From Octopus vulgaris (lineage: Eukaryota), in the NCBI GenBank assembly GCA_951406725.2, contig OX597814.1:84444001-84508000 (forward strand): DNA of 64,000 nt, read 5' to 3'. Positions 7,882-46,300 of this stretch are shown one piece after another. The notes under the pieces are model-generated. The model did not search any database. It worked only from the letters and a program-made list of their open reading frames with translations, and had not been told where the DNA came from. The position numbers were made by a program, and so were the translations under genes. How positions within the stretch are numbered: the first letter of the stretch is position 1; every line of letters starts with the position of its first letter.

Positions 7882-8136
7882 TAGTAATGAAGTCAAACCA
7901 AATAGCGATATTTCGAAGTTGTTTAATACATACATTTCAGGTTTGTGTAATATATGATAGGAAATGCATTCATTATGTAAACCTTTCTAAGTTAAAGCAC
8001 TTCAAAATATTTTGAACTGCTTTAACTGAGGAAGATTTACATAATGGATGCATTTCCTATTATATATTATACGTAACCTGAAATGTATGTATTAAGCAAC
8101 TTCAAAATATCACTATTTGGTTTGACTTCATTATTA
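7882..8136. repeat. ~255-bp loopless palindrome made of two inverted hammerhead-like motifs
   Basis: Arms of ~125 bp pair around the centre TTCAAAAT|ATTTTGAA (8001-8016); mismatches are mostly transitions. Confidence 0.93.
8018..8098 (+). ncRNA. Minimal type I hammerhead ribozyme-like motif (Penelope-type)
   Basis: Stem I TGCTT(T)AA/TTAAGCA; core CTGAGGA 8026-8032; stem II AGATTTACATAAT...ATTATACGTAACCT; GAAA 8080-8083; minimal stem III with loop TGTAT; cleavage triplet GTA 8089-8091. A more degenerate mirror copy lies on minus at ~7920-8000. Confidence 0.7.
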
Positions 8137-8640
8137 CAACTCATAAGACTCAATACCATTACAAATTCATCAGTCTAGGCTCTACTTATGTGGATACTCT
8201 AACAACAATTTAGAGTAGTTTGTTATATTTGACTCAAGTTGAAAATTTTGGTACCATGCACTGCTTCTTAGTATAACATGAAATATATATATATATATAT
8301 TATATATATATACATATATATATTACTAATATATAATTATATTAAAGGGTGCGGATAAACCCCACCAACATGCTAGAAATAGACACCAAATGGTTCTAAA
8401 ACCAACACCTACTCTTTGTTACCTGTATGGTTTTATCCTTAATTTTGTATAAATATATATTTTACTCCTGATCAAATTGTATTTGCTGCGATATTATTTT
8501 GATTGTAAAAGCATGTGTTTGAGATGAAAAAATTAGATTTAAATAGTGTACATGTAAATGTATGTATATAATCATGCAGATATATGTTGTTCATATGGGT
8601 ATGTATAAATATTTGCATTTATATACTATGGGTATATTGT

Positions 8641-9428
8641 ACTGATGATTAGGAAAGGTCAATTTGTCCAAAAAGGCAAAAGAAAATCACTACATCAGAT
8701 ATAAAAGGCTCTTAATCAAACTGAAAAATCCAGCAGATTTGATTTGGTTTTTCTCAAACGAGAAAAACTTCAACCAAGATCAAAAAGTTAACAAAAAAAA
8801 TTACAGATGGTTATGTGCACACCCTTCTGAAGTTCCAAGTGTTATACATACAAAATTTCCTGCAACTGTCATGGTTTTAGGGGTTGTCAGCAATGAAAGA
8901 CATGTGACCTCTCCTTACTTCTTTCCACAAGGCCTTAGAGTTAACTCTGCTGCCTACATAGAGGTCCTGGGAATAATTGTTAACCCCTAGATAGATAGTG
9001 TATGCAATGGAAGACCATATGTGTTTCAGTAAGACTCTGCACTATTACACATGGGAATGAGTGGCTGAAAATTTTCATGATCACATAACCCCTAACATTT
9101 GGACTCCTAATTCCCCAGATCTCAATCCATTGGACAATTTACATGTGGAGCATTGTTGAGAGATCAATGAACACACCCATAACACCAAAGATTCTATGAA
9201 AGCTGCCATAGTAAGAGTAATGTCCAAAATGAACCAGGACCACTTGATCCAAGCATATAAATGATTTAGATCTTACAGAGAAGCAGTTGTTGAAGCTGAA
9301 GGTAGCTTTATTAAATAACATTATAGAAAAGGTGGTTTATTTTTATCCTCATAGCATTTTTTGATAAATAAAGTTATACGTTTTTTTATAAATATAAATC
9401 TGTCCTCAAATATCTTACACACCCTATA
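8641..9428 (+). mobile_element. Tc1/mariner superfamily (maT/DD37D-like) transposase remnant with right end
   Basis: WFFSNEKNF...KFPATVMVLGVVS, then VFQ*DSA and WTPNSPDLNPLD (third catalytic residue D) in broken frames; ends CACACCCTATA. Confidence 0.8.
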
Positions 9429-10794
9429 TATATATACTGCCAGTGTAAGAACAGTCTGAAAAAAATTCAGGAAGTTACTATAGTTGAGAGACATGGCTTT
9501 AATGTCTAGCAAAGGTTCTTAATCTGGGCAGTAGTGTCCCCTTTCAGGGGTGCACAGGCTATAAGGAGGGGTTCTGGGTATTTAGAGGGGTTGTAATTTT
9601 CCTAAGAAATAAAATATTTAAAACATGTCCAATAGTGTATATAAAGGCTTATAGTCCAAGTAGTGTCCTTGAAAAGCACATCTGCATGTCCACAATAATC
9701 AAACATTTTATTTTTGAATCTTTGTCTGAAGAATTACAGTATATGTAACCTTCGTAACTCTTATCCTGTATCAAGACACATACGACATGGATACCAAATT
9801 TTTCCATTATTTTGTTTTGATATAAGACATGTACAACATTTATATATTAACACTTTAGCATTCAGGTTACTCCATCAAATGTAATGTTTATTTATTCACA
9901 TTGCTTTAAATTAATCATGTATTATCTTGTAGCCTTGAGATTTCTAAATTTCAGGCTTTGTGTCTATAGTAGAAAGGATTATAAATCATTAACTTTCTAT
10001 AATTAAATGCAAAATAGTTCACCTTTGACTTTTATATTTTTTCTGTTACTATCATTTTCAATCTTTGAAAATGAATAATCACAAAATAAGTGTTAGCATT
10101 ATTTAAATGAGAGAGCATTTGTAAAATAGCATTCAGTAAAAGAGATCACTGAACAACAAAAGATTAAAATCTTCTGATCTTGTGTTCTAGCCATAAACAT
10201 TCCATCTTTTTAGGATCAATATAAATATCATCATCGTTGTTTAACATCCGTCTTCCATGCAGGCATGGATTGACTAGTTTGACAGGAGCTGGCCAGGAAG
10301 GAGCATGCAGCAGACTTGTGTGTGTTTTAGCAGGGTTTTTACAGCTGGGTGCCCTTCCTAACACCAACAATTCCGATCTTTCAATTTTTAAAGATTTTTA
10401 GGGCTAGCAGGTAGAGTTTTAGCTATTTCAGGGAGTAACAACCCTACCTATCATGAGTTCTGGGTTCAGCTGACAGCTTTGTACAGGCCTCAAAACTAGG
10501 TTTAAAGATCAAACTTTTAGTAGTAGAAAGGTGAGTGAGGCAACAATGATTAATGACAGACTCTTAATTTGATGGTGCCATCATATATTACTGCAAACTT
10601 ATGAACCAAAATAATGGTATCTACAGCTGCAGAAGTGGGTACCAGGGAACCATACAACTTTAAATAATATGGACATGAATTGGGACACAAGATGCCATGT
10701 AGAAGCTTCCTCATTGGTTCAAGGCTTTCGTGTTACCATGTCTGGTTAAAGAAATGTTTTACATGATTACAATTATGGCTGTTTAGTTAGTCAT

Positions 10795-10962
10795 ATCATC
10801 ATCATCATTTAATGTCCGCTTTCCATGCTAGCATGGGTTGGATGATTTAACTGAGCACTGGCGAACCAGATGGCTGCGCCAGGCTCCAATCTGATCTAGC
10901 AGAGTTTCTACAGCTGGATGCCCTTCCTAACGCCAACCACTCCGAGAATGTAGTGGGTGCTT
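10795..10962 (-). mobile_element. Short RTE-tail retroposon with (ATG)n tail
   Basis: catcatcatcatttaatgtccgctttccatgctagcatgggttgga...ggatgcccttcctaacgccaaccac. The same family occurs at ~10227, 11455-11725(+), 33273, 51170, 53000-53360(+), 53975-54165(+), 54500-55005(+) and 57570-57925(+). Confidence 0.8.
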
Positions 10963-12391
10963 ATATATATATATATGACACATACATACATGCACACACA
11001 CATTATCCTGGGGGAGCCTTTATATAATCACTCAACTTGTTAGACATGGCACACAACAGTTGTTCCCTGAAATGAAACCCATTTTTAATGTGTCAAAAAA
11101 GAAAACATTGGGTAATATAATCCAAGAACAGCTGACCTGAAGGCTAAACAACTTATAACAATGGTTACTTTCACGTGCCAACAAATCATAGTGCATTCCA
11201 CACTATTACTTTATTTTGTTTTATTAATAGATGAAAAGTAATTTGCTTAATTTTTAAACTGTGAGTTACAGTACTAGGTCAGGATTAAGGTTAATATTCA
11301 AACCATATCATATATAAAAATTATAAATCAATGAAATAAGATTAGTATAAAATAAACAATTGCAGCATGGAAGATGCATATTAGCCATTCAGTAACACAC
11401 AAAGACTGTTGACTTTATTTAAACATTTATTATTTGTAATATGATCAATGTAATATAGTCGTGGCTAATACTGGTGTCACAAAACAGTCACCCATGCCAA
11501 TGATACGTAAAAGGCACCCTTTAAATATTGGGCTTCATGGAGGTGATAAGTGACCAAGACCTTTGATGATATGCCGTACTTGGGAAGACTCATGACAAAT
11601 GAAATTGTAGCTGTGGTCAATGTCAGTGTCACCTAACTGGCATGTAAAAACCATGCCAAATTAGATTGGAACCTAATACAATTCTCCAGCTTACCATGGA
11701 AAGCAGATGCTAAATGATGATGATGGTGTCAAAATTTCCATCACCTGGTCACTAACAACATAGTCACACTGTGTTTCTAAATGGCTAAAATGTGATCCAC
11801 ACTGCAATCATTTTAATTTTGACATATGATCTCAGATCAAAACACTTCCCATGCAAGTGCATCTCCATTTTAGTATAAAATAGAATTATGTAAATTTGTT
11901 GGGAACACTACAGGGATCTTTTCCCTTTCAATAGCAGATAGAAAGATTAATTTTTTGTAACTAAACACTTTCAAACTTCAGACACTGGTAGAATGTGTCA
12001 TATAAAACATCTTTTACTCTTAGCGTTTTTGAGAAAAGTTTATATTTTCAAAGTTATTTCGTGTTAAAGTTGTCGGATTTCGGTAATTTCAACCAATCAA
12101 TGACGTGTATTCAGCTGAATAAAATTACTGCCGTTGTTTGTCAACAACAACTATCGGTGGTGTATGTTTCATTTGTCAGTTATTTATGACATCATGTGTT
12201 TGTACTGGTTTTAGCTTTAGTGGGTTAGGGTTAGAGTTATGGAAAAAAGTGAAAAATGAAGAAATTGGAGGTGGGGGGTTCAAGATTCTGATTTTTGGCA
12301 ATTTTCCGGAATATCCATATCTGAAAAGCTGGGTTTTTCGCAAAAAAATGTTTAAAAAAACAATAATTTGAGAAAATGGTGGGGAGGAAGT

Positions 12392-13250
12392 CATCATCAT
12401 CATCATCATTTAGCGTCCGTTCTCCATGCTAGCATGGGTTGGACGGTTCAACTTGGGTCTGTGAAGCTGGAAGGCTTCATCAGGCCCAGTCAGATCTGGC
12501 AGTGTTTCTACGGCTGGATGCCCTTCCTAACGCCAACCACTCCGTGAGTGTAGTGGGTGCTTTTTACGTGCCACCTGCACAGGTGCCAGACAGAGCTGGC
12601 AAACGGCCACGAACGGATGGTGCTTTTACGTGTCACCGGCACGGGGCCAGGCGAGGCTGGCAACGGACACGAACGGATGGTGCTTTTACGTGCCACCAAC
12701 ACGGGGGCCAGACAGAGCTGGCAAACGGCCACGAAACGGATGGTGCTTTTACGTGTCACCGGCACGGGGGCTAGGCGAGGCTGGCAACGGGCACAAACGG
12801 ATGGTGCTTTTACATGCCACCGACACGGGGGCCAGACAGGGCTGGCAAACGGTCACGAACGGATGGTGCTTTTACATGTCACCGACATGGGGGCCAGACA
12901 GGGCTGGCAAACGGACACGAACGGATGGTGCTTTTACATGTCACCGACATGGGGGCCAGACAGGGCTGGCAAACGGCCACGAACGGATGGTGCTTTTACG
13001 TGTCACCGGCACGGGGGCCAGACAGAGCTGGCAAACGGCCACAAACGGTTGGTGCTTTTACGTGTCACCGGCACGGGGGCCAGGCCAGGCTGGCAACGAA
13101 CACGAACGGATGGTGCTTTTACATGTCACCGACATGGGGGCCAGACAGGGCTGGCAAATGGCCACGAACGGATGGTGCTTTTACGTGCCACCGACACGGG
13201 GGCCAGACAGGGCTGGCAAACGGCTACGAACGGATGGTACTTTTACGTGT
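12392..13250 (-). mobile_element. RTE-tail retroposon nested in the Merlin-like element
   Basis: (CAT)6 tail at 12392, then the RTE 3' end, continuing into the 61-bp tandem array. Confidence 0.8.
12555..13250. repeat. GC-rich minisatellite, ~12 units of ~60-63 bp
   Basis: Unit GGATGGTGCTTTTAC(G/A)TG(T/C)CACCG(G/A)CA(C/T)GGGGGCCAGACAG(A/G)GCTGGCAAACGGCCACGAAC repeated head to tail without unique spacers. Confidence 0.95.
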
Positions 13251-16200
13251 CCTTTCCGAAAATAGAAGCTGAAAAACAGGAAAGAAATCCTAAAAGCAGG
13301 AGAAATGCACGAACAATTATGGTGGTGCCATGAAGTAAACATACTTCAGATACACTCGTTTATTCACACGAACGTAACTGAGATGAAATATGTCATAAAT
13401 AACAGTGACAAACGAAATATACACCGCCGGAAGTTGTTGTTGACAAACAACAGCAGTAATTTTATTCAGCTGAATACACGTCATTGATTGGTTGAAATTA
13501 CCTAAATACAACAACTTTAACACGAAATAACTTTGAAAATATAAACTTTTCTCAAAAACGCTAAGAGTAAAAGATGTTTTATATGACACATTCTACCAGT
13601 GTCCAAAGTTTGAAAGTGTTTAGTTACAAAAAATTAATTTTTTGATCTGCCGTTGAAAGGGAAAAGATCCCACTACAGTAACCAATCTGATAAACAGGCA
13701 TGTAAAACATACATCTGCATAAAAAACAAAAAAGAAATAATCAACACAATGGTGACAACTTCAATACATCATCTTTAATTTGACAGCTTAACACTGGAGC
13801 AAGAATTAACAGACTTGATTATATATATATATGTCGGAAACAAGTTTTTTCTGGTATCTAATTCGACTAGAGGTTTTTTTTTTTCTTTTTCCTCAGAATA
13901 CTGTAGGAAATAGACAGAAGAATACAAATGAAACAATGGATTAAATGTTATTAAGCAATTTGTTCAATATGCTGTTTCTTTAATAAGTAATATTGTTTTG
14001 TTTTGTTTTTACTTCCAGAATTGGCACAAAAATTTTGTGCAATATTGACTACCATGATATAGCATTGACCTGTTCAGATGATGGAATCATCTTTTAGACA
14101 GTAATGCCTGCAGTCAAGATATATACACAATGGAATGGAGCTGGCAAAAAGAAAATAGCTTGGTCAGCTGTGAACTTCCAACAACTCCTATCACAGGCGC
14201 AATACACCAGTTGATATTTGGTGAAATGGGAAGATCTACAAGTTAAACCTTTTCATTTTCCTCATCATTCCCGCCTCAAAGTATGCACTAGAGAAAGATG
14301 TGGCAAAGTGATATGTAAAAACATGAGGCGGTGGTGATGATGATGAAACAGAGTGCATTGTTCGGCTAAGAAGTAACGATCACAGCTGAATTTCATGGAG
14401 ACTGTCTCCAACTTCCTGAATACTCCTACAACTGAAAAGTTATGTTCCATAACCTTTAAGCAGTGTAAGACGAGAGAGAGAAAAACAGAGGAGGTGGGGA
14501 GAGAAAGGAGGAGACATTCAAGATAGAACTCATTGTTATTGTCACACATATACATAATTTTTTTGTTGATTTCTTTGCTAGCAAAATCTTTAGCTTAATT
14601 GAGCGATTGTCTCATTTACTGGAGATCTTCAGAGCGAATGATTGGTCAGAAAAAGGGTAGAGTTGAATGATTAATGAAGTGGTCAGCAATGAAGAAACAT
14701 TCATTGGTTTTGAACGGAACCAGACAGCAGGGTTTGGCCAGCAATATTTCCATAGTAGAAAATTGTTTGTACTCTATGTACTCAGTCTTTCAAAATCTAA
14801 GACTTAAAATTCAAAGCAGACGCACATTTTACAAATACTATTGATACATAAATACATACCCTTTTTTTTTTTTTTTTTTTACTTAAGTATAAAACCCCAG
14901 ATTTATAGCATTAGTGATTATTATAAAGTGAAGCAGTTTCAGTAAGATAATCAAAACCAAGTTTGGATTAGATTAGCTGGGAAGTTATTACTGCATCACA
15001 ATCCCCTCTTCAACCCTTCCTTCCAAAAAATAAAATCACAAAATATGTATATTAAATAATTTAATGTGCAAATGGAATTTTCACCCAGCCAGGAGGATTT
15101 AAGTTTCTATTTTGTTAATTCACTTCAGCAAATTAGATTCTGTAATTAAAAGTCCTTACTGTGGTAGCAAGAGAGAGAAGAGAGAGATGGAATACTAGAG
15201 TATTTAACAAACAAAACTTTCCAGCAGCTGGAGAGTAAAGAGTGCTATATATATACACACACACACACACAGACACACACATAAATTAACACATACACAT
15301 GCGCATGCACACACCATGTTTCTAACATGGGATTGCAAGACTTGAGAAGTACCCGATTTTTCATGCTAGCATTGATTGGATAAGTCTTCAAATCTAGACT
15401 TTTGACTGATTTGTTTAAGCAGATATTTCAAGTATATTTTTCGGCTATGCAATTAAAGTAATGTTTTATGTATGGGTGAATTATATCCTTAACAAGTATT
15501 GAATACTGCCTTCAAAATAACACTGTACAGAGAAACTAGTCATGATGAACATTCTCACAAACACACACACAATTCATCATAATTATTATCTTCACCATTA
15601 CCAACAACAACAGAAAATTATTTTTCCCAATGATTTTTCAAACAGTTTACTTCATAAGATATTGCTGTGTACCTACTGTGTGCCATTTCAGTTACAGTAG
15701 ACAGTGTTTATATGTTACTCCTCAAAAAAGTAAAGGAGTGCTGTAAGATCATGCTATACAAGCATTCATCATCAATTAGAAATAATACTCTCACTAACAC
15801 TTACACATGTTAGTAATTTCAGCTAGCAAATTTTGCAATTTGTGTTTTTTTTCACATCTACTTTCCTATACTAGAAAATGAAAGAGAGGAAAATACTGTT
15901 TTGTTTGTTTGGCAAACTTGGATATTTGTATAAGAATCATGGATGCCTTTTGTGGTTACTAATTAGCCAACAATGAAGCTAGGTTGATATTTAGTTTTTC
16001 ACAAAGGCAAACTCAGACAGGAAAGAGCAGAATATAGTTGCTGTTAGCAGAATACAGCAGGCTGTCAGCAGCAACTTATCTTTACAGTTACAACTTATGA
16101 TTGATACATTTATACATCTAAAAAACAAAAAAATTACTCTACCAATGAATAGCATGATTTTCATTGTTGTTTGAGTTTAATAATCATATCACAGTGACAT

Positions 16201-18882
16201 ATTTCAACTAGCTCTTTACCTGGTCATTTTCTGACTCTTTGTATTAATATTGATAACAAAATATCTTACTTTTTATTAGTATTGGTGAAAAAGTACAGCA
16301 ACTGGACTTAGTGGCTAATACCAGCTGATAGGCAGCATCAGAGTACACAATTTAGACAAATGACACCAAAACAGTACATACATATATATATAGTGCAAAG
16401 GATTATGAAGAAATATGACCGACCTACTGCTACAAAGAATTCTGGTGCTATTTTGATCATAATAGACAACCCAGTTTTGCTTTAAATATATATAAAAAAA
16501 ATTAATGCTGACATTTAAACCACTTTAAACTCTTATTTGATCTGTTAATATATTTTGAAATTGTATATTATGCTAAACCTACTACTACTATCAATTACAG
16601 AGTGACAATTCATTGATCAACATCCTCAATAATCTAGTGAGCCAACAAGCAAAATCTCTCTAATAATCTCTCACAGTGAAGAATCCTCAACATTCACATT
16701 ACATTGTCCCATTTTATTTTTATTAAAGTGGAATAAAGAAGAGACATGAAATTAAATACTGAAATATATGCCAGATTATCACTAACTTAGAGAATAGTAT
16801 GCTTGATATAAAGGTAAAAGAAGATGGAGATGAATTATGTAGCACAGCAACTTAACATAAGCAAAGGATGTTGACAGACTGAAGGGTAAGCCAAATAGCT
16901 TCATGATCTTATATTATGATGGAATGTTAGTGCAAAGACATTTATGTTTTGAGCAAAATATTTTAACATTGTTTAGAAACAGAATGAAATTTTCCAGCAG
17001 ATCTTTTACAGGTGGACAAAATGAAAATGAAACAAAAATCAAACAAAACAACACATAAGATTGACAGGGACTAAAGATATTAGTTTACAAAATGGAATAT
17101 AGATGTTAGTTTTCAAAATGGAATAAAGATATCAGTTTTCAGAAAGCCTTTGTTATTAAATTAATAAATTTGTAAAGAAAAAAATTTGCTCAAGCTGTAA
17201 TTTAGACAAACTACACAGCTGCATTTTTATATTTTCTATTGTTAATTATAATTTGTCAGTAGAGAAAATGACAAGTAGGCTAGCAAACTATGAGGTAGAG
17301 TTACGTAATAAAAGCCTACTGAATCAATATAATCTCCAATTTCTCAGTTCCTCAACAAACTGCAAAAGGTTAACTCATGGAAGAAATAGTTCTAATACAT
17401 AGAAAAGATGAAAATAAGAAAAGAGTGAAGTCAAATCTATCCTGCAAATAATTTTTAGTGATGCTGCCAGAAATGATGAAACATCAAACATTCCCTCTCT
17501 TAGCTGCTTGTGAACCAAAATCTCAAACATACAGGTTACAATTTAGTTTAATGGCAGTGCACACAAAGGTCAGTGTCTTAAATTGTACCTGCAAACATAT
17601 TGCAACAGATAAAAATATACAAGACCTGCATAATTTATATCTATATATTAATAATCTAGCTGTAGGCAAGTTAGAGCAGGAGGCTAATAAAAACTGCTTG
17701 AAAGACATTAGTGGAGCTAAGAGAAATAGCTCAAGACAATGGCATGGTTTTTAACTAAGTATGACTGGATGCACTGAATTTATATAATAGTGGAAGGGAT
17801 TTTAAAGTTTTCTCCTCTAGATTAGAGAGCATATTACTTCCAAAAACCACAAAAGTATAAACATGAGTAGTTCATTTCAGATGGTTTTAGACACCATAGG
17901 ACTGACAGAAAGACATACGATGTTGTGCAGATTTGTGCCATACAGGATGTTAAGAGTTAAATCTTAATTCATTGAAATACACTCTTCTGTTTTTTGTGAA
18001 TTGCTAACAAATGCCACTAGACTTTTGTGTTCTTTATCTAGTTTAGAGGAAATTTTCAGTTCATTAAGAATATATTTTCATACATCATTCAGTACAGTCA
18101 CACTTACATAAGTAAAAGCCTCTATTTATTAAGTAGGTTCATATTGTCTATTCTTCAGAGACTGTCACTGTCTTTAAGAATGATCAGATTTTCCTCTTAA
18201 GCATGACAATCAAATTAATTTAATGAAATTATCTCACCTCTTCTAACAAAACAAGCAGGTTTTTGTTTCCTTTCTTCAACTAAATGTAAAATTGCATTTT
18301 ACTAAAAATGTTTGAGTGTATTTCATTCAGCAAATTCATTCAAATCCCATATTTCCATAAAAGAAGCAGATCAATGGTGCTAATTAAGTAAAATCAGTGA
18401 ATTGATTATGTAGTTGTACTTGTTTAGCAAATCACTTGATCTGATATCAGATGTTTAAACAAAAACTAACTGTGGAACAATCATACTACCCATTTAAAAC
18501 TATTTATGGTTATATTCCTTTTTGGTCTTTTTTTGTGATAATCTTTGGTATATTTTGTTATCATAATGTACTATAAAGCGTCATAAATTAGTCGCTAAAG
18601 CAATTCCATTGCATGTTTTATTGTATTAAATCATTATAACAATAGATATGCTACTGGTAAACTTCTTACAAGAGAGTGTTACATTTGATAAAGTAATTAT
18701 CTAGAAAAGATAAACAACAGACTATGGCTATGTAGTTAAGTTCAATTAGAAACCACATGGTTCCAGATTTGATCCTACTGAGCAGCACTTTGGGGAGGTT
18801 AAGCAGTCTTGAGAATTATATTTTAGTAGAAGAGTAACTGTGCAGAATGCATATACAAAAATCATCAGATGTACATACACAC

Positions 18883-18888
18883 TTTATT
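18883..18888 (-). terminator. Candidate polyadenylation signal AATAAA at the base of a long hairpin
   Basis: Plus-strand tttatt at 18883-18888, followed on minus by GTGTGTATGT and TTTTTGT tracts. Confidence 0.35.
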
Positions 18889-19084
18889 TTTGAATCAACA
18901 AAGCTACCAATGGTTTCATGTGGAAAGGGTATCAACAATTCTTCAAGCTGTCCTTTAAAAACACTGATAATTGTCTCCATTCAAAAATGGAGACGATTAC
19001 CAGTATTTTTAAATAGATTGCTTGAAGAAATGTGGATACCTTTTCCACATGAAACTATTGGTAGCTTTGTTAATTCACAAATAA
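18884..19084. repeat. ~200-nt hairpin (arms ~98 nt, 4-nt loop) made of two inverted hammerhead-like motifs
   Basis: TTATTTTTGAATCAACAAAGCTACCAATGGTTTCATGTGGAAA...GTCTCCATT-CAAA-AATGGAGAC...TTTCCACATGAAACTATTGGTAGCTTTGTTAATTCACAAATAA. Confidence 0.93.
18897..18953 (-). ncRNA. Hammerhead-like motif, sense to DGCR8 (core position 3 is U instead of C)
   Basis: Minus strand: ACAGC-TTGAAGA-ATTGTTGATACCCTTTCCACAT-GAAAC-CATTG-GTA-GCTTTGT. The plus-strand mirror has TTGAAGA 19022-19028, a perfect ATGTGGA/TCCACAT stem II, GAAAC 19051-19055 and GTA 19061-19063. Confidence 0.5.
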
Positions 19085-22000
19085 CGAATGCACCAAATGC
19101 AGTGTTGAATACTGATTATTATTGTTCAATAACATTGCGTGTTTGAGTGAGTATGTGTGTCTGTACACACACTGGCATGGGATGGTCAATCAAAATCAGC
19201 ATGTGGCATTTAGTCACATTATGCCAAGGTTGATTTTACCTTTCATCTCTTACATCATCAATAAAATAAGTGTCAAATAAAGTACTAGGTTTAATACAAG
19301 CAGTTAAAACTCTAGGAGGTGAAACCAGAGCATGAATCAATAAAAGAAAAAGTTGATATTTACAATAGCAACGAGATATAAATGAAATTAGAAAACTGAT
19401 AAAAGATGGCATAAATTCTTGTAAAAGAGAGACTAAATAAAAAGCCTTTGACAAAGAAATTATAGCTTCACAAAAGAATGTGCTATGAATGGGAATATTA
19501 TAATGTAGAGAAGTTCTTGTTTTGCAGCTACTGATAATTCAAATAATTCTTTCACATTAATATTCACAAAAACCTTTTAGTGTCAGCTGTTGCAGATATG
19601 TTACTGTCAGGTTTGCAGAGAGATCTCATTTGATGATAGACTGCTATCATTATCACAGAAACACTATTTGATGACACTGGCAATCCACTAGGAACATTGC
19701 ACAGCCTAAAGCCATTGAATTTGAGCTTGAATTATAGTTCAAATTCTTGTCATACCTGGATACCTGGCTACTGTCTTTCATCTTCAGTAAGGAGAGGGAG
19801 AGATTGTAGCAAAAAATATACCTGATCAGTTGTCAGCAGAATTACAACAGCTTTTAAGGTATTGCAAGGAAAGAGAAATATATGGAAGATTTGTAGCGCC
19901 TGAGTGTCTTGAAGATGAAAAATATTGATTTCTGACATAGGTACAAAATATAACTTTGATGTATAGAGATTTTCAGTGACAGCTGTGTACTTCCTCTAAA
20001 TCTGAGTTTTAAGATAATGTCCCTTTACAGTAAGCTAAATATATTGTAATGAGGTATAAGAACACTGAAAGGAACAATAAGAGAAGAATTTAAATTCATA
20101 TTCAGCATGTGAAATAGCAGCTGTAGACAATATTAAGACAATATAATGTATTAGATGCCAAGGAATAATGGAAGGAGAGACAATATGATGGTAATTGTGA
20201 ATTAAAAATTGACTAGTTCACACATCTATTACCTTCATTTTTCTGGGTTTAAACTTGACTTAAAAAATAGCCACTTAATTGATAATAATGATGATAATAA
20301 TAATGATCATGATGATATCAGTGTTTATTCACTGCATTAATTACCTTCAGCTGCCAGTGAAAATAAGTGACTAAGAGAAACAAGAGTAGTAAATGCATAA
20401 TTGAGCCAATGTCCTTGCAACTTGAAAAAGCATTTTGATTTTTGATGACTGACTCCAAAATCAAGTTCATATGAAGTGAAAATAGTTATAAAATAAATGG
20501 TTTCTAATGTAACTTCACTAAACTAATCCCAGCATAAATGATTTCAGATTCCCTTCAAGGAAAGACACATAAATGCTAGGGCCTTTTACATTTTTAACAG
20601 TTATATATAGTAAAAACAACCAATGAAGGAAAAAAATTGGATCAGAACAGAGATATTTCTGGTAGTGAGAAATGAAATAATCTACTAAAAACAAAGAAAA
20701 GTGGTTTCATGACATTCAAGATGTGAATAATTCAATTTAAGGAGACAAAACTTTTACTTAAATCCTGATTCCTGACAAATATATATGTATGAAAAGAAGC
20801 TAAAATACGAAGAAAATAAAAAAAAAAAACCTATGCAGAAAAAAAAAAAACTCTGGTCAGATTACATTTCAAATAGAGAGGAATAACTGAACCATATCCA
20901 CACCAATTTTTAGAGCAAGAGACACTACTTAAAATCTAACAAAATGACTACCTGCTATAAAGTATCTTACATGATACTGTTTTGAACAATGCAAACTTTT
21001 TTCTTCAAATATCTGAGTCACAATTTATATTGTGCTTGGGGGCTATAAGAATAAAATCAAATGTATCTATTAAAGAGATTACACACACACACACACACAC
21101 TATGTATGCTTGCATATGAAGGAGTTAGCCCACCATAAACCATAAAATATATCTGCTTTGAAAATTCAACCATAAACTTGGATTTCCTCTTTAGTTGAGA
21201 ATTTTAAATTAACAAGAATTACATATGAATCTGAAAATATTGATCAGTGTGTGTATGTGTGCGTGCGCACGCACAATACACAACAACTGATATATGAGAA
21301 ATAAATTATTAAAAGGCTATCATCACTTTACTCCAATTTTAGCTAATTTCACTTTAACCATGATAGCTTAGGAATGGGAAACTAACCATGTGTGTATATG
21401 TAATGTCAACATCCAAATATTTAAATGAGGCAGTAATAGAAGAATATGGAATGGGCAAGGAGTACTTGCCTCCCTTGGTTATCACAATTTTTCACCCACT
21501 TATTCTGTATATATATAAATGAGAGCACACAGAATTAGATGAGCTAGGAGGAAGTGGTGGCTGGATTAACAATTGTGCTTCATCCTCCGACTGCAAATGC
21601 TTTCATTTTAAGTTCCATGTAAAAGTCCAGAGTTATAATGAAGTTTATCAAAAACAAACATCTGTCCCTCTTCAGTCAGCGGAAGGCTAGCTACACAACA
21701 TCAACACATTTCTAATTGAAGTGATGCAGTGTAAATGTAAATGCAATAAAAAAATAACATATAAGATACAGTGTAATTAGTTGCTGGATTTTGAGATAAC
21801 AAACAGTTCTATGCAAACAATTGACAACTATAGTGCAAGATACTGGAAAGTGTAAAGAGATTTTTTTTAAAGATGACATGTAGGAAGTTCCTCAAAAGTA
21901 GACCCCCCCCACCCACAAAAATAAGAAAAACATTGAGGACGCCATATAGTTCAATCACACTTCAAACAACTATGGCTAAGACAGACAGAAATGGGTAGTG

Positions 22001-22255
22001 TTTTTGTGGAAGATCAGATTGATAGTTGAGTGCAGTAATGGAAAAATGACCAAGTCATTGACTCAATATTACTTTTCTTCAAATGACATTCAAGTTAAAG
22101 TTGGTGGTGGGTGAAAGAAAGAGAATGTGTGTGGGTGTGAAAGAGAGAGGGAGAGAGAAACAATTGGCTACAAGCATTAAAATTGAAAACAACAGAGTAA
22201 TCTTAAGTGCATTGATAGCATAAATTAACAAACATCTGTAAACAAAGGACTAGTA

Positions 22256-22333
22256 TCAGAGGTCTAATCCTGACACATTTCCTACAGGGACAGCTGATTC
22301 AAGCCTCAACTTTCCTCTTGATTTGATGGATTC
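22256..22333 (-). CDS. DGCR8: DGCR8 terminal coding exon
   Basis: tttgcAG acceptor, phase 0; [25 protein letters not shown] then TGA at 22258-22256. Confidence 0.85.
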   Translation of the reverse strand, partial: ESIKSRGKLRLESAVPVGNVSGLDL

Positions 22334-34300: not shown

Positions 34301-37300
34301 CCATATTCTCAAATACACTCACCTTCTTGTATCTTGAGAGGACTCTTTAACACCTTGTCACCATCAATATTGTCTTCTTTCCAGCTCTTCCTATCAACTC
34401 TTATATAATGTAGGGCAGCCTTGTATCTCCTCTTTAGTAAGACATCTGTGCAAATTTCTGTCATACTTTAGCCTCTAAACATCTGGCATACAGTCACCTC
34501 CCACACTAAGTGTAGGGGTTTCTTTTTCTTTGTCTTGCAAGTTACTTGGCAATCTCACTAATGCCAGTATCATGTAAAAAAGCCCCCAGTACACTCACAA
34601 AAGTGATTAACACTAGGAAGGGCATCCAACCTTAGAAATCATGCCAAAACAGTTCTCCAGCTCATTGGACCCTGTCAAACTGTCCAATCCAACCCAGTAT
34701 GGCAGAAGAAGATTCAATGATGATGATGAAACCAAAGAAAACCTTTGTGGCAGTACTTCCTCAAAAATACCATTCACATAAAAAACAATAGATGAGCTTG
34801 CGTTAGCATTTAATATAATTAACTTTAAAAAGTCTAATTAGAAATATGCCTGGAGTGAAGACAATATTAGTCAATGACAGAAGACCGCAATCTGTGGCAA
34901 GGGTGACAGCTGTGTTCAAGACTCACAACTTCCAGCCGTGAGGATGGCCCTGTTCATTCATTCAACATTATTTTAATTATTCTGGCATGTATGGGAGATG
35001 ACTTCTGACATGTTTCACTCTTCCTAGATCTCAGAGTTAATCAAAACTTCACTATACATGCACAACAAAATAGTGATGAGATAGTTACTAACTAAAAACA
35101 AATGGCGGTGCCTCAGCATGGCCACAGCTCATGAGCTGAAACTAGAATCAATCAATCATTACACACTAATTGGCATATTTTAGAGAATAAATGACTCAGG
35201 GGTCACACTAGAAGAAATATTGTAAGGTTTAACCTTTTAACCTCATGAATTTGTGGTGTGTAATCAATCCATCATTGGAACAATCCTAATGTTTTAATAT
35301 TTAGTAATTACCTCGCCGTCGATTCACTTTATCATCACCCTTGCTTGAAGGAACAGGGCAAGTTATTAGTTTGGTATTTGAGGGCTGTAAGTAAAAAAAA
35401 AAAATATACCAAAACAGTATTCATCAGAGCTTTGTGTTACAAACTTGTAGATATAAACACTGAAACTTTATTTCGCCATAATTGTGCCACAGAATTCTAT
35501 ACCAAATCATTTCATAGCTTTAAAAAGAAACAACAAATACTCAAAATTTTGATAAAAAGACTGTTTTTCCCCTCAAAAAGACTCATATGAATTAATCTAT
35601 GTATGGTTGTGTAGTGATGAAGTTTTCTTTGCAACCATGTAGGCTCAGGTTCAATCCCACTGCACAGCACCATAACCTCAGATCAACTAAAGCAAGGGTT
35701 CTCGACCATTTTGATTACTATTTTATTCTGGTGAACTCCCATAGCCATTCAATATTTAAAAACTAGTCTTATAGAAATTTCTTTCAAAATTCTATTTTGT
35801 TTTTCACATTAACTTGTGTAGGTTGAACTATGTAAAACGTTAAAGAAAGAAATCTAGGTGTTTCTTCCAATACATATTGATACATACATCTAAAGTAAAA
35901 AATTTTTCAGGGGCTCTTGAAATACTATTGTGGATCCCCAATTTACAATTTGGTTGCGTGGACCCCAAAAATCTTATATGGTAGATGGAAATGGTATGGA
36001 AGACCACTTGAAACAGAATTCACTACATTGCAAGAATTCAGATAACTTCCTCCTACCACCACCACCACCCTCAAAGATTTTGAAAAGGACCATGGCCAAT
36101 ACCCTTCTCTGACAAACCAATTAAAAAGGACAGCATGAAATAGGAATGAAAATGTCAAATTTTCATCTACTTTTACTTGACCTTCTTTCTGTTGACTCTC
36201 AAGCTGTTTCAAATTTTTTCATTATTAATTCAAAAGGACTTTAATTCATATAAATTGTGATTGGGGAAATACTTTTAACAGAAAAATAAACTTAGGTATG
36301 TATGTGTGTGTATACGCATATATATAAACACACTGATGAAAAATGCACTTGTATTTAAAAAGAATATCCTCTAACCAAAAAAACTCATTTTAAGTGCATG
36401 TGTGTGTACACAAATAAAGATAAATTGACTTTTTTTGGTTAAAGGATATTCCTTTTAAATATAACTGCATTTTTCATCAAGTGTGTTATTTTTCAACATT
36501 TTAGAAATAGCGAAGTATTTATGTTGCAAATTTGCTGCAAGCTTTTAAAATTTGCAGAATTATCTCAAACAATTTTGATATGCTATATGAGAGGATGAAG
36601 AAAATTTTGTATTAATGCATGACAATATAAATTGCATGTTATTCAGTAGATCATTATCTACTTGAATTATTTAAAATCACGCAATTGCCCCACTTGAGTT
36701 ATTTTCATAGGTAACTTTTTGTAATTAATGAAAAGAATGTTACTCAAATGTGAAAATTGATATAGAGAAATATCAAATACATCAAATTCAATCCATGGAA
36801 AAACAGATGTATAATGATGGTAATGCTGATGATGAAGTTTGCCACAAACAAACTTCCATGACAAAAGGCATAATATAAATTTACTTACTAAAGCTGGCCG
36901 TGATTGCTTTTTCATTAAACTCATGTGACGTCTTCTTTCCTTCCATGTTCTGCAAGAGATAATCATGATTACACAAAGGAGTGGCAATAATGAAATAAAT
37001 TTAAAAGAATCAAGAGTTTTCAACCTACATCCTATGATGTTCCCAGTTTTTAATTATTCTACTTAGGTAGCAAAAAATTAGTGGCTTGGAAAAATACTGA
37101 TTCAATTGACTGACAATAAACCCCTTGAATCCTGCCAAGATACTCAATAGATGGATAAGGTATGAAATGACAAGTGAAGTGTCAGTTCTGTCTTTTATGT
37201 GGTCACTGTTTATGTATAAAAGATATTCTGCATAAATCACTAACAAATGGGCACAGAGAAATGATTGTTGTTGTTTAGCCTCAAGTAAACCATAATCAAA

Positions 37301-40300
37301 CCAACTTACCATAAAAGGCGTCCTACATATGACTATTATACCATTTTGTATATCTAAGACTGTTATCCAATGTTTTTATTTTTTAAGATGATAGGATGCA
37401 ATTTAAAGAAGGTTGCTATTTGTAGCAGGTACAGCAACAACATAGAGACTCCTGAAACACCAACAGGCGATTCTCAGTCAAACATAGATACAAGACAAGT
37501 TAAGTACCATCTTTTATGTAGACAAGTCAACCAATTCCTTAAATGTTTTGTTTACAAATCCATATTGGTTGTTTGCAGAAGAATGTATTTCTCTTTGATA
37601 AAAACACAAAGCAACACAAGTTTTAAAACATAATGCTGGGAACCAAACTCAAACAAACACAAAGGACTAGCACAACACTATTACTTGAATTTCAATAGTT
37701 CAGAAGCTGACCGTTGTGTATTGAAATCTTAATCAGTATCAAACAAAATGCTATACATTTGTTTAAATAATTAAAAACTGCCAGTCACATGGCATGCATG
37801 AGTTTTATATGAACTTATCTACTTTTTTTTGTATACATTACAATCAAAATAAACAGGGACATATAGTTGATTCCATTTCTACAGGATTATGGTTGATATT
37901 GCTACTCCTTTTCATATGTTCTGTTGGTTGTTCTTCCACTACGGCAAGATAGGAATTCACAAACAACAAAACTTGGCAATGTCATCGCTGATAGAGCAAG
38001 GAAAATCTCTTGATGACATAAACTTACAGTCAATCAAAGACATCTCAACCTGGTTCATGGCATTCAAAGCAAAAGTTTATGCAGACGAATTAAAGGATAA
38101 CCTACAAAGTAATGACCAAAGTCCTATGGCTATGAAATTCATTTCTTTGGTAGAAATTCCGTAATTAAAAATTATCCAAGATATTAATATCTTGAAGAAT
38201 ATTATAAAAATGACTTACAATGATCTAAAAAATTCAATTCTATATCACATTATTCATTCAAAGAAACTGATACTAGCCAAAAGAACAAAATTCTTCTCCA
38301 CTATTCAACAACCCAATGAATCAATTTCTCAATTTCTTTCAAATCTGTGACATGCCAGTGAATACTGCGATTTTGAAAGTCTGAAAACATCTAAAATGCC
38401 AGTGAGTGAAAAACTTACACTGTCTTGGCTGTCAGTCAAAGCAGCACCAAGGAAAGAGAGAAAGTTCTTCAAGCTAATGATGTTAACAAACTCAGTTTAG
38501 AAGCTACAGTACAATTTTTACAACATGCTTTGCAAATATCTGAATTTTGCAACAACACTTCAAAAGGAGAAATCAATGCCTATTCCAAAACAAATGTGCA
38601 AAATAAAAGAAAAAATTTGAGAGACCAATCCTGTTACTGCTGTGGAAAACTTTAGTTTCCACACCATAAATGCCCTGCAATAAAAGCTATCTGCAAAAAC
38701 TGTGGCAAGAAAGGCCACTATACAAAAGTTTGCTAAAGCGCCAAGAATGATCGCAGGATGAGTCATCAGGATGAAATCATGACTTTTATCAGTCACGCAT
38801 TGGAAAAGCCCAAGTTTGAATCTGCCTCATTTAATGGGCACATGATAGACATGATGTATGATAAAGGTGCTCCCTGCAGCATTACCTCATCTGTAATAGC
38901 AAAGGATAATAGCATGACAATTACATGGCAACATACTTCAAACTAATCGTATGATGTACACCACATGGAATGCATTGGGGACGCTTGCCTTACAGTGAAA
39001 CAAGGAGGTTGGTAATTCCTCCATACTTTTAAAATAATTAAAGGTAACCACAGATATGGTCTACTAGGTTGTGACCTGCTCAATGTTGAAAAAATTTGCA
39101 GTATTGTGTCATTTCTGCCAATGATAAAAGGAGAGCAAGCTTCTGTCAAATTAATACTTAATGCCTCCGATAGATACTGTGCTGCTAGAAGCATATCTAT
39201 TACTCTCAAGGAAGATGTAGCAAAGAAAATAGATGCACTGGAAGCCAAAGGTGTAATTAAAAACTGTGCGCTGGGTGGTATACTCAAAACTTCTCCAGTC
39301 ATGTGGATTAGAAAGAAAAATGGACTGCACATGTGTCCCAATTAAATGAAAAAATATGCACGGAAGCTTATCCTTTGTCACAAATAGAAACCATGTCCAG
39401 CAAGCTTAGTGGTGCAAGATTCTTCACTAAGATTAACTTAATCAATGCATACTAGCAGATCGAACTCAATGAAAAGAGTCAAAAACTCTGCACCATCAAT
39501 ACTACAAGAGGAGTATACTTGGTTATGTGAATACAGATGGGGATGAAAAATAGTTCTGCAATTTTTCAGCATGCTATAGAGAATGTAATGCTCAAGCGAC
39601 TAAAAAATTTCATTGCCTACCAAGAATATAATTGTCTTTGTTAAGACAGAAGAGAGCCTGAATAAACTTTTAAATGCCATCCTCGGAAGACTACATGAGA
39701 AACAAGGCTGTGTCAACAAAAGAAAAATGTGTTCAAAATACTATAAGCATCACATTTTTAGGCCGCGGGATATTGGCAGAAGGAATTAAACCTGCAAAGG
39801 AACTCACTCACAGAATCATAGCATTAAATCAGCCAAAAACACTGAGGAACTGCAATCTTTTCTTGGGTTAATCGGATACTTTCGGCAATTCATTTCAAAT
39901 ATCAATGAGAAAACAATTAGCATGCAGAAACTAGCTACTGCCAATTGTTTTCAGTGGACAAACAAGTGTTAATTTAGATTCAAGAATATTAAAGATGAGC
40001 TATGCAAAGAACCAGTGTTGAAGCCATTTGATCTATACCAAGCTCATGATGGATGCATCAATGAACAACATTGCTGCAATACTTTCACAAAATGGTCACC
40101 ATGTGTGTTAAGAAAATTGACACCTGCTGAATCTAATTGGTCAAATATCAAATGTGAATTTGCCATCGTATGGGCCATTACCCATCTCAAACAATTTCTG
40201 CTAGGTAAAAGGTTCAAACTCAATATGGATCATAGACCCTTAAAATATATCTTCCACCCAAAAAAGCTGATCCCAATGAATGTTTCTGCTAAAATCAGAC

Positions 40301-43300
40301 AATGAGCTATTCAATTAATGGCATTTGCTTTTGATATATCCCATATCTCTGGCTCTAAAATTCCTCATGTTGATGCAATGTTGAGATTGAAAGTAGAGGA
40401 CGAGGGAATTGTCTTTGCAGTTGAGCCATGTACATTGATCATGTGAAAAATATCACTGAATGCAACAGACACATTCAGCAAATCAATCGCATGCTCAAAT
40501 CCAGAAAATGAACTTCGCAAAACAACTGCAACCTCCCTTTGAAATGTGTGTGTGATCAACTAACAATAGAAGACAGAATTCTATATTTGCAAACGCGAAT
40601 GTTTGTTCCCTACCAACTATGTGACAGTGTGCTTCGCGACAGTCATGATACACATTTGGCTGTTCAGCAAATGCTCAATAAAATTTCTCTTGAGCTCTGG
40701 TGGCCAAATATGTCTCAAGATGCGACTACCTTCATTTCCAATTGCACTACTTGGCAGCAGAATCAAAGTATGAAAGACAATTTGATAGTGACATGGAACA
40801 AAGACGGTCCTTGGGAACATATTTACATGGATTGGGCTTTCATGAACTGAATTGGCAATTTACTTATTGTCGTCGATTCATATTCCAACGACACTGATGC
40901 TATCCTTTGCACCTCATGCAAAAAGTAAAACATAAAAAAGTGCTTGACGTGTCTCTTCACTCTGTTTGGACTGCCAAAAGTTACTGTATCAGACTGTATG
41001 TACTGAATTTACAACATTGAAATTTTGGCTATCATCTCTTGGCATAAAGAGCATATATACACCTCCTTATCATCCACATTCAAATGAGCAAGCCAAGCAA
41101 GTTGTCCAAACCATTGAATGCCCCTTATCTGCATGGAATCCTGTCATCGATTGGTATCCCTATTTACAGCAAGTTCTACTCAATCGCCAATCTTCACCAG
41201 GTGGGAAAGCTGCTTCTCCTGGGGAAAGGTTATTCGGAAGATCATTACATACCAGCTGCAACCCACTGAATCAACTTTCTTATTGTGGTGGCATGTATTG
41301 TGTACTGGACTCTTAATCAATATATAACAAATGCTGTGCATTTGTTTAAATAATTAAAAACTGCCAGTCACATGCACAAATTTTATGTGAACTTGGTTTT
41401 TTTTCTATATATTGCAATCAAAATAAACAGGGACACATAGTTGATTCCATCCCTACAAGATTACGGTTGATGTTGTTACTCCTTCTCATATGTTCTGCTG
41501 TTGGTTGTTCTTCTGCTAGGGCAAGACAGAAATTCGCAGTTTATGGCTATTTGATCCTTGTTTCTATACTTGTGCTTATGAAATAAGCAAATAACAAAAC
41601 TTGAGACTGTCTATAGACTCACTGAACTTGTATCAATCATTACCATTTGAACATGATTGTACAAGGTAGTATAGGTTGGACAAGTTTACATTGTTACACA
41701 TTTTGCTGCACTCTTAATACCAAGGTTTTTAGGTTGAAACCAATACTTCACATGTAGTTTGGTGATCCCTGCTCTAGGCTAACAGATGTGTTTTCCCTTC
41801 ATTCTTCTTTACAACCATTACTACTTGAAACTAGCTGGATCTGTGTCACTTTTACTGAGGTCCTCCCAACTCATTCATCTCTCCTGTCTTCATCACCCAT
41901 ATTGTGTCCATTTTTTCCCCTCAGGTCCCATGCTAAACAGTTTGTCCAGACATTTTCTCCCAGAATATCATTCCTCTGGAATTCACTCCCAACCATATCT
42001 TTCTGTACCCAGTGGTTAATGTTCAAAAACATTAACCCCATCAATTCTCTGGACATTAGCACAGCTCCTTCAACCTGTCAAACTAGGCGTTAACCCTTTC
42101 GTTACTATATTTCTGACCAAAATACACCCCTCATGAGTTTCAATTAAATTCTAAAATAATCATGAATCTAGGCTTGTTTCATTAAATAACTGTAACTTTT
42201 TTACTTTAACATATTAATGTGATATTTGGAACATAATTAAAGAAAGGGTTCTTAATCAATTCTATTGCATAACTTTTGTCTCAAAGTAACTTTAATTACA
42301 GGTAAATCCAGGTAAATTGAGTAAAAGGTAAAAAATATTAAAATTTTGTTTAAACATCACCATAGAAAATGAATCATCAGCTAATATTCAAACGAATATG
42401 CAACAAAATTTTGATAAAGAAGAATTGTGCACATCACTGGATCATCAGTTGAATTTAATGCACAACAGGTGTACCATAAAGGTGGAATAAACTGAAATAC
42501 TGGAATCCACCGCAAGTTTGACCGAACTAAAGAAATCGGTCAAAAAATAATATACGGCCCTGGTTATGGTATGGAAGTGATAAATTCCAGACCACATCGT
42601 TTCCTTGGCCATGCTGACTAACATTAATTTCTCTGTATAAAAACTAAATCCACGCAGTACCCAGTATTTGCTTCACAAATTTTCCAAAATTTGATCCCCC
42701 ATTTTGTGTTTGTTTACAATCTGCGTAAATTTGTTTCCGCATTGATCGCTTCAAACAATAATTTCCAGACCACATCATACCCTAAGCCATGCTGACTAAC
42801 ATTATTTTCCCTGTATAAAAACTAAATCCACGCAGTACCCAGTATTTGCTTCACAAATTTTCCAAACTTTGATCCCCCATTTTGTGTTTGTTTACAATCT
42901 GCGTAAATTTGTTTCCGCATTGATCGCTTCAAACAATAATTTCCAGACCACATCATACCCTAAGCCATGCTGACTAACATTAGTTTCCCTGTATAAAAAA
43001 CTAAATCCACAACAGTACCCAGTATTTGCTTCACAAATTTTCCAAACTTTGATCCCCCATTTTGTGTTTGTTTACAATCTGCGTAATTTTGTTTCCGCGT
43101 TGATCGCTTCAAACTAGCATACTGAAAAAAATAAAAGTCTAATGGTTTTGCTTCCTAAGAAAGATTATAGATAAACTATCTCCTCAGAAAAATTGCTAAT
43201 AAAAACATTTTTAAAGTTTTTTACTACATTCCGATGTAAAATCGTCTTTGCTGTCGCCATCGCCGCTTTCGGTTTCGGATAAAAAAATATCCTATTCATT

Positions 43301-46300
43301 ATTTTGTACATCACGTGCTTTTGTACCTATTTCATTCTTTTTCTCGATATCTCCCTATTTTCCGTTGAAAAAGCTTTAAATTTGGAATCAATGCTTGATA
43401 ACATGAAACTCCTATCCATTTTCAAAGTTGAAGAAAAATCGATGCCGAAAAAAATGTGGAAAAAAATATCCCAAAATTCACTGAGTTGAGATATTACTTG
43501 AAGCAATGTCAGATACTATAACTCAACTATTTAGAAAGTGAAATCACATGTTTTAATGAATGTACCAATGAGATTTGGGTTCAAATTTACATTTAAATAA
43601 CAATAGGTTCTCTCGGCCGGGTTGGTATTATGAACCAAAAATTTTTTGGCCGGGTTAGTAACAAAAGAGTTAAAGCAGTTTTGAACTAGACCCTCTGAGT
43701 AATTGCTTTCAAAATACTAATATTATACACACTTCTGCTTCCAACACTCACTGAGATTTTAAAGAGTTTGTAATACTTACTTAAATTTTTTAACTGTAAT
43801 TTTTTTGAATTCAAATCTCTTTTCACAATACTTCCTCAATTCTAATGGATCTGAAAACAAAAATATTTAATCATTTTAAATTATAACATACCAAAGTACA
43901 AAATTATGATCCCTTAATCCTTTAGCATTCAGATTACTCTATCAAATACAAAGCTTATCTTTTTCACATTGTTTTGAATTAATTATATATTACCTTGTAG
44001 CTTTGAAATTTCAGTGTGATCATTTTTAGAATGACATTGTAAGGTAGTTGTGAGAGGCCAGCTTTGGCTTGTTTGAACACAACATGTGCAATATTTGAGC
44101 CAGATGTGGCTGGTTTAAATACTAAAGCGTTAATTTTAGTTAGATCACAAGATACCTAAATATTCAAGTTAGGAAAATAAATTATTAACCAAAGTTTGAA
44201 AGAAAAACAGAATTCATTGAACAAGAACCCTGAATTCATTGAAACAGAGTAATAACAGGAAGTTTATTAAACAAGCAAGAGTTTTAATTGACAGAGTTTA
44301 TTAATCAAGTACTAGACTACTAAGAATCACTTGACTAGTTTTCGCTTAACACTGATACTTGTTGCAATAGTTCAGATCTAACTGAGAGTAAAAACTTGGT
44401 ACCTCATGCAGTTTTCTCTGCAGCTAATTCTTCTAAAAGTTGTCAGAGTCTACATTTATAGTATTTTGTGACATCAGACTTTTTTTTTTGTCTTCTTTAT
44501 GAGCCACTGTATGAGCTAGTTAAGCTGAAAATTATCACAATTTCCAGCACATCATATAACTGAAAAACAACTTTCACTGGTTGCTAATAATTATGTTTTC
44601 TATCTTCATTTTTTTAACATACACTTTTCAACGTGTTACTGGAATTCATTGAGGCAGACTTTCTATGGCCAGACACCCTTTCTAGTGCCAATTCTCATGT
44701 TTCTAAAGTAAATTTCCCCCATGGCTGGACATGTTTTCATGGAAGACAGTGATGCTCATAACTATCACATGATGTCCAGACAAGGAAACACAAACACACA
44801 CACAGGATGGGCTTCTTCAGTTTCCATCAGCAAGGCTTTGTTAACCCAAGGTTAAAGTAGAAGACTTTCCAACCACATAGTTGGAAAGCAAATTTTCTTA
44901 ATCACACAGCCATGTCTACACACACACACCACCACCTTCTTCTTCTTCTTCTTCTGTATATCCACTTTATCCATACTAACATGATTTGAACAAGACATAT
45001 TTAGACAGTTTTTTTATGAATGCATACCCTTCCTATCACCATTCTGTATTTGTAGCTCAAGTGAGGTATTTGGATTCGACTTGTCTTTGCATATCTAAAA
45101 CAAAAGCACCAAACTGTGGGACATAGCTACAGGTGACATAAACAAGCATCACTATTTTTACTTAAATGATGACAATATGAAAATACATGGATGTGTATGT
45201 ATATATATATGTACGTGAGTCATCTAAGAGACCACAAGTGAGGGAGAAGATGCACTCATATAACTGTTAGTAGAGTGGGTATATTATCTGAATTTTGTAG
45301 CATTAAGTATCCATCATGGCTGGTCTTACCAATCGGTTTCGGGCATAATACAATGGAGTGTTAGGTAACAATCCAATTATATAATTACATTCATTAGAAG
45401 TAGCCAATATGGAAGGGAATATGGTGTCTGCTCTCTATTGTCAGAGATGGATTAGCACAAGCAGTCAGTGGCTGCTGCGAAAAAAGTGCTGGAACAGAAA
45501 AAATGGGTCAGGGGATTTGGCTAAAGTTTGACTTAGACACACACCAATGCACCTATGTACACATACGCACACCCCTATAAGGCAGGCATCCTGCATATAA
45601 CTATCCCCCACTACCCCCACATGCAGATTGTACCCCCACACACACCATTATACATTACACACCGCACGCTAATATAAGAACCCCACAACTTTACCCATTA
45701 CAGAAAAAACAGACTAACAAACACAGCACTATACATACCTACACCCACAAAAAAATTATACATATGACACTGCTACACATACCCCATCCACGCAGGGACA
45801 CCACGTTAATAAACACTTCAAGATAACTCTTGCTGGCTTCACACCATATTTAACCAAGGGACATAACTCTTAGCTAAATCTCCTGGCTCATTTTTGTTCC
45901 ACATTTTTTGCAGCAGCCACTGACCGGTTGAGTAGTCACCATATTCCCTTCCATATCAACTATCTCTGATGAGCGTAATTATTTAATTGGATTGTTACCT
46001 AACACTCCACTGTATTTTGTGTGAAACCGATTGGCTTGGAAAAACCAGAAAAATGGAAGCAGTAAAGAACTATATCAGTTAGGCAACAGGTTTATTTAGC
46101 AAGGGCAGAAGGAAGGAAGCTTGCCAATGTTACGTCATGAGGATCGAGGTGCTCCAGATGGCAAGACAGTATATCAAAGGGAGTCAAGATGTATGGATAG
46201 ACAGCAGCATGCTTGCACTTAGTGATTCTGAAAAGAAATAGACATGAAACTGCTACTATGAAAGGTTATTAAAATGCGGAAAATGCATAGAAGGAGAGCC

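Follow-up and report, generated by a model that had tools for sequence, protein, structure and literature searches.

Hammerhead-bearing palindromes in an Octopus vulgaris contig as probable remnants of truncated Penelope-like insertions

The hammerhead ribozymes of Penelope-like retroelements (PLEs) reportedly cleave as dimers. PLE insertions contain an inverted, 5′-truncated copy, carry a one-sided tail of 30-40 bp and are biased towards microsatellites (PMC8557442), and the palindromes at their head-to-head junctions have been ascribed to self-priming (PMC3846280). A purified PLE protein can cut as well as extend both strands in vitro, with two internal start sites (PMC11167929). Two of these papers leave open both the mechanism of the inverted copy and the role of the hammerhead (PMC8557442, PMC11167929). 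PLE hammerheads have a long helix II with an unpaired base before it, and in Schistosoma mansoni minimal hammerheads on opposite strands, 100-700 bp apart, were attributed to truncated PLEs (PMC4209133). Among cephalopods, Penelope-like families have been annotated in Octopus vulgaris (PMC13282606), and 235 hammerhead matches were reported for the giant squid (PMC6962438). We found no paper on palindromic hammerhead stubs in cephalopods, or on such stubs as a class, in a literature mostly outside the subscription journals.

The DNA analysed here is a window of 64,000 nucleotides from O. vulgaris (contig OX597814.1), for which the earlier note had described three inverted repeats unrelated to each other. 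All three are present, R1 at 7882-8136, R2 at 18884-19084 and R3 at approximately 45317-46046, and the best blastn match between arms of different elements has E = 0.098. No second copy of R1, R2 or R3 occurs within the 64-kb window. Their parts, in window positions, are the following.

7882..8008, minus strand: R1 inverted (left) arm, with the short 3′ end; core at 7991-7985 (CUUAGAA), GUA ending at 7927
8009..8136, plus strand: R1 direct (right) arm with a type I hammerhead; core at 8026-8032, stem II at 8033-8079
Same arm, plus strand: rest of the R1 hammerhead, GAAAU at 8080-8084 and GUA at 8089-8091
8137..8278 (right end approximate), plus strand: R1 one-sided extension, absent from the left side, with (TA)n after it
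18884..18983, minus strand: R2 inverted arm; core at 18946-18940 (UUGAAGA), GUA ending at 18905
18985..19084, plus strand: R2 direct arm; core at 19022-19028, one unpaired A and a 7-bp stem II
Same arm, plus strand: rest of the R2 hammerhead, GAAAC at 19051-19055 and GUA at 19061-19063
19085..19140, plus strand: possible one-sided tail of R2, by analogy with R1, with a GT-rich tract after it
45317..45530, minus strand: R3 inverted arm; core at 45397-45391 (CUAAUGA), GUA ending at 45327
45531..45864, plus strand: R3 spacer, strongly C/A-rich, GC skew -0.56
45865..46046, plus strand: R3 direct arm; core at 45966-45972 (CUGAUGA), GAAAC at 46023-46027, triplet GCU at 46034-46036

The R1 palindrome has no spacer, its centre lies at 8008/8009 and its arms are identical in 115 of 128 columns. 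R2 has next to no spacer (86 of 100 columns identical), and in R3 the arms, at about 45329-45528 and 45865-46034, differ by a 25-nt indel and are separated by a spacer of 334 nt, which would be a longer 5′ part of the direct copy. The arms of all three elements are head-to-head, and the hammerhead-like motif in every arm reads from the centre outward, the cores of paired arms being 35, 76 and 569 nt apart. A contig covering 7923-8065 or 7923-8067, with one letter different, spans the R1 centre in each of three presumed DNA runs (two studies), so this palindrome is real and not an assembly artefact. We propose that R1, R2 and R3 are, with good probability, dead and heavily 5′-truncated insertions of three different hammerhead-bearing PLEs.

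The motifs agree with their description in the earlier note and read CUGAGGA..GAAAU-GUAU-GUA in the R1 right arm, UUGAAGA..GAAAC-(C/U)AUUG-GUA in both R2 arms, CUGAUGA..GAAAC-CGAUUG-GCU in the R3 right arm and CUAAUGA..GUA in the R3 left arm. The same note saw a core deviation in all copies. This holds for the R1 left arm (CUUAGAA) and for R3 (CUAAUGA on the left, GCU on the right), but not for the R1 right arm, where the invariant core is intact and the defects are a U15.2-G16.2 wobble and one stem II mismatch. In R2, core position 3 (19022-19028 and 18946-18940) is U instead of C in both arms, with G8 kept; since it is common to both arms, this change was probably already in the source element.

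The motifs were weighed against chance with an ad hoc tolerant hammerhead score, written after they had been seen. Of the best 40 sites listed for the window, the R1 right arm has the highest score (23.8) and the R2 right arm the next (23.5), and the maxima in eight shuffled windows were 20.3-22.5. Of 1000 shuffles per arm, the observed score was reached by 0 and 2 for R1, by 0 and 4 for R2 and by 0 and 48 for R3, where paired arms are not independent and the triplet used to score the R3 right arm was one base off. Five of the six arms beat at least 996 of 1000 shuffles, and the R3 left arm, whose score 48 shuffles reach, is marginal on its own. A strict hammerhead descriptor had no matches in the 64-kb window, and no hammerhead family was returned by an Rfam search of the window and the three sites, which indicates that the copies in the window are decayed. 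When folded without constraint, none of the six arms adopted a hammerhead structure (z from -2.39 to +1.17). The R1 motif pattern was found at no locus in metagenome and viral contigs, and the R3 pattern at none in metagenome contigs. Rfam output on the stubs consisted mostly of sub-threshold matches to miRNA precursors.

With MITEs and other TIR DNA transposons, R1-R3 share a short, non-coding sequence with inverted ends (PMC8969392). They could be MITEs or foldback DNA transposons whose hammerhead motif was picked up as a passenger or is fortuitous, as their long terminal inverted repeats and the outcome of the Rfam and strict descriptor searches would allow. This origin is extremely improbable, and for R1 it is already largely refuted. 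No target duplication of at least 5 bp abuts R1, R2 or R3 within 6 nt of their ends, in contrast to the 8-bp duplications of both TIR elements of the window, which served as controls, and the earlier view that the elements are not TIR MITEs is thereby supported. The hammerhead score separates the two groups as well, since the observed value was reached by 46-672 of 1000 shuffles of the TIR arms. In addition, the R1 family is one-sided, its ribozyme is restored by family letters, and the symmetric, fixed ends of a TIR MITE family are absent from it. The control elements (11914-13670 and 29561-30665) are related to each other, with GGAT...ATCC ends and arms of about 280-290 nt. A SINE-like repeat lies within the first, as does an array of roughly eleven units of 62 bp, and a fragment of the same family lies at positions 1-47 of the window.

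The family-level comparison was made for R1 only, with public contigs aligned to R1 at 80% likeness in 4 of the 24 listed runs. The three presumed DNA runs gave 1294, 1038 and 1332 family contigs, and R1 is a dispersed family with hundreds of copies. Run X12, which is RNA by guess, gave 45 family contigs, none of them 99% alike, and has no bearing on expression. Among the 40 of 256 variant rows listed, the family majority has the core and stem II repaired, together with a long stem I and a palindromic stem III; for R1 the earlier assignment to PLE-type hammerheads thereby gains support. The left-arm core becomes CUGAGGA by the majority letters at 7989 (415 of 520 depth, run X2) and 7986 (346 of 520), the stem II mismatch is mended at 8035 (6865 of 7932 depth, X2), and GAAAC-GUAC-GUA results from 8084 (1394/2197) and 8088 (1230/2226). 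Stem I of the family consists of 5 bp, a 2x2 loop and 12 bp, and its outer end falls at the palindrome centre. One compensatory pair in this stem, 8017:8100, is A-U in the R1 majority and G-C in the left arm, as read from single positions. The consensus of the loose ends at 8101 reads GUA in runs X1 and X2 and AUA in X3. Six letters (8041, 8084, 8088, 8097, 8098 and 8100) are shared by both R1 arms and differ from the family majority; the arms therefore came from one template or were later converted.

A type I hammerhead with a short palindromic stem III is thus present in R1 at the family level, and in R2 and R3 as read from single copies. The Schistosoma PLE hammerheads are likewise of type I, with a long helix II and a short palindromic helix III; the unpaired base before helix II recurs in R2, and the opposite-strand pairs are in the same size range (PMC4209133). 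On the other hand, stem I of R1 is long and composed of two parts, stem II of R1 is closed by A-U and not by G-C, and R2 combines U3 with G8, against the reported U3-A8. The main text of that paper does not call the Schistosoma pairs palindromes.

The R1 palindrome is not a symmetric unit, as is evident from its one-sided extension, from a pile of 3′ ends at its short end and from its varying junctions. The palindrome itself has the extent first given for it (7882-8136), but the element is longer: family sequence continues on the right to about 8278, some 140 nt beyond the end of the palindrome and unmatched on the left side, and contigs run from the hammerhead into the extension (8043-8276, 8079-8253 and 8101-8280). 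The family ends in two ways on the 3′ side. At 8141, 36, 34 and 39 contigs of the three runs have loose 3′ ends whose TA-rich flanks are unlike each other, and this pile sits 4-5 nt from where the R1 left arm stops. The joints seen are the 15 listed of 76, beside 811 unlisted loose ends, and their orientation is ambiguous, the reference being palindromic. Each is represented by one contig per run, and all lie at different places. Two are asymmetric arm junctions (7969-8037 and 7982-8032), the joint 7959-8058 is a mere switch between mirror positions, and no empty-site joint is among the 15. Depth, in approximate contig-equivalents that are not copy numbers, decreases from 331-351 at 8038-8054 and 214-233 at 8021-8037 to 90-93 at 8004-8020 and 19-22 at 7987-8003; the few centre-spanning contigs prove little, since contigs may break at hairpins. 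Family depth over 8106-8139 is roughly double the depth across the hammerhead, and immediately to the left of 8101 the sequences of 57-72 contigs per run part from R1. Copies that begin directly after stem I may account for this, or else a subfamily at a greater distance.

These asymmetries bear on the class of tiny fold-back elements suggested in the earlier note, in which fixed units of 200-250 nt would spread via a rod-shaped RNA that has a ribozyme on each strand. The occurrence of two near-perfect palindromes of similar size in unrelated families would agree with such units, as would the placing of the R1 centre at the outer end of stem I, a defined point of the structure, and the roughly 20 contig-equivalents just left of this centre. 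The R1 family is nevertheless asymmetric, its junctions vary and R3 has a spacer. Moreover, both strands of a palindrome yield the same RNA, an antisense arm followed by one ribozyme, so no unit-length viroid-like monomer or circle could be released: there is a single cut per strand, and each ribozyme lies downstream of its own complement. The hairpin is also favoured: relative to separately folded arms with an open core, it gains 127 kcal/mol of stability in R1 and 83 kcal/mol in R2. A transcript would fold as a rod and have hammerhead sequence on both strands, as in the hammerhead viroids; in the palindromes, unlike in viroids, one and the same RNA comes from either strand, a second cut site is lacking and nothing indicates RNA-to-RNA replication. 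Spread as a fixed unit is thus very unlikely, and neither the element class nor the viroid-like RNA of both polarities is supported by the analysis.

The elements could also be non-autonomous hammerhead retroelements, similar to retrozymes or SINEs and free of ORFs, which a PLE protein moves in trans and inserts head-to-head, the palindrome being a by-product. In this case no linked ORF is expected, and none was found; R1 depth drops towards the centre, the rows listed show no accumulation of 5′ loose ends at 8009, and a preprint derives the retrozymes of animals from PLE pLTRs (10.64898/2026.07.22.740005). The decrease in depth towards the 5′ end is equally predicted by 5′ truncation. Non-LTR retrozymes are, like R1-R3, short and non-coding, with a type I hammerhead and a probable PLE origin (PMC7229834; 10.64898/2026.07.22.740005). 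Retrozymes, however, are head-to-tail tandems that release circular RNAs, and R1-R3 are head-to-head, with one ribozyme per strand. The retrozyme layout of head-to-tail units, each with a hammerhead, is absent from R1, R2 and R3, none of which has a further copy in the window. We regard a non-autonomous origin as unlikely.

Truncated PLE insertion is the reading we prefer, and R1-R3 look like a known kind of sequence, ordinary truncated head-to-head PLE leftovers, from new families. Insertions of endonuclease-positive (EN+) PLEs have a head-to-head inverted copy, variable truncation, a one-sided 3′ extension, a hammerhead in the repeated end and microsatellite-like flanks (PMC3846280, PMC8557442), all of which have counterparts here, the one-sided extension in R1. 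Unlike those insertions, R1-R3 have no ORF left or linked and no target duplication was found, and the R1 extension of about 140 nt exceeds the published 30-40 nt. Head-to-head arms and the absence of an abutting target duplication are common to the three loci; the multicopy family, the restored hammerhead, the two kinds of 3′ end and the varied junctions are observations on R1, which R2 and R3 would presumably share.

An origin during Penelope-type retrotransposition, possibly self-primed, had been suggested before and is the likeliest one; such a mechanism was proposed in PMC3846280. Reverse transcription would start near the pLTR end, primed at a nick in microsatellite-like DNA, and would halt early, at the hammerhead or just upstream of it. 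The same end would then be synthesised a second time, in the opposite direction, and joined to the first copy head-to-head, so that equal truncation would give a perfect palindrome (R1, R2) and unequal truncation a spacer (R3). For the inverted copy, the cDNA might fold back and prime itself, or synthesis might be primed at nicks in both strands, a second route that the two-strand cutting by the PLE protein would permit. The hammerheads would act in the tandem transcript of the parent, and not in the palindrome.

The stop and the fold-back point of reverse transcription might be set by the long stem I of the hammerhead, from which recurrent palindromic stubs of defined size would result. At the R1 locus the centre coincides with the outer end of this stem, and a few contigs have joints (8021-8101 and 8001-8102) that link both strands of stem I; we consider this possible but doubtful. 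That a subset of such stubs, R2 or an R1 subfamily, was in addition re-mobilised in trans as a fixed fold-back passenger of PLEs is quite unlikely.

The earlier note had called for a search for linked Penelope RT/GIY-YIG ORFs. None was found around the sites or in the R1 extension, and truncated copies need none. Within about 1.5 kb of the three sites, 0 of 74 stop-free peptides match a relevant Pfam family. In the R1 extension, 7 of 18 variant rows are synonymous and 3 are stop-removing in the sense frame from 8096, a result that is not significant (P=0.086 over six frames, with the best frame antisense). Protein searches with this frame revealed no PLE protein, and the four matches were to repetitive, unrelated proteins. 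Because no link to a PLE ORF was found, we infer PLE membership from the ribozyme type and the architecture.

The insertion sites resemble each other on the left. An identical CA-rich 11-mer lies at the left junctions of R1 (7872-7882) and R2 (18874-18884) and has just these two occurrences in the window, both strands counted. Since the R1 family lacks the 11-mer at that point, it is read as target sequence, probably so in both elements, on the basis of the two sites. About 60 nt to the right of R2, at 19146-19155, there is a reverse complement of the 11-mer with one mismatch; 14 one-mismatch sites exist in the window. Copies of the 11-mer flanking R2 would be in keeping with synthesis primed at similar sites on the two strands. 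Two loose direct-repeat candidates, one near R1 (9 bp) and one near R2 (11 bp, some 77 nt beyond the arm), each with 1 mismatch, were not accepted as target duplications.

A fourth palindrome, at 36327-36487 (161 nt, 84%), carries ACACACT at either outer end, a motif that R1 and R2 have at their left junctions. It has no outward hammerhead and no target duplication, and its weak inward hammerhead-like motif has a score that 34 of 1000 shuffles reach. It may be a PLE stub that ends short of the ribozyme.

PLE content is probably undercounted, because stubs of this kind resemble MITEs or miRNA hairpins and evade the Rfam hammerhead models. Hundreds of stubs in one family allow the fold-back points and the 3′ ends to be mapped against the stems of the ribozyme, and the R1 family is therefore a dataset able to test how PLEs build the inverted copy.

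Other features of the window were also recorded. An ORF piece at 8649-8990 resembles a Tc1/mariner transposase by eye, with no Pfam match at E 0.01. Three tandem units of about 178 nt occupy 42580-43115, where no hammerhead site is present among the best 40 listed. Broken ORF pieces at 2096-4040, with endonuclease- and reverse-transcriptase-like sequence, we take to be LINE-like, and those at 38943-41316 presumably derive from an LTR-retrotransposon pol.
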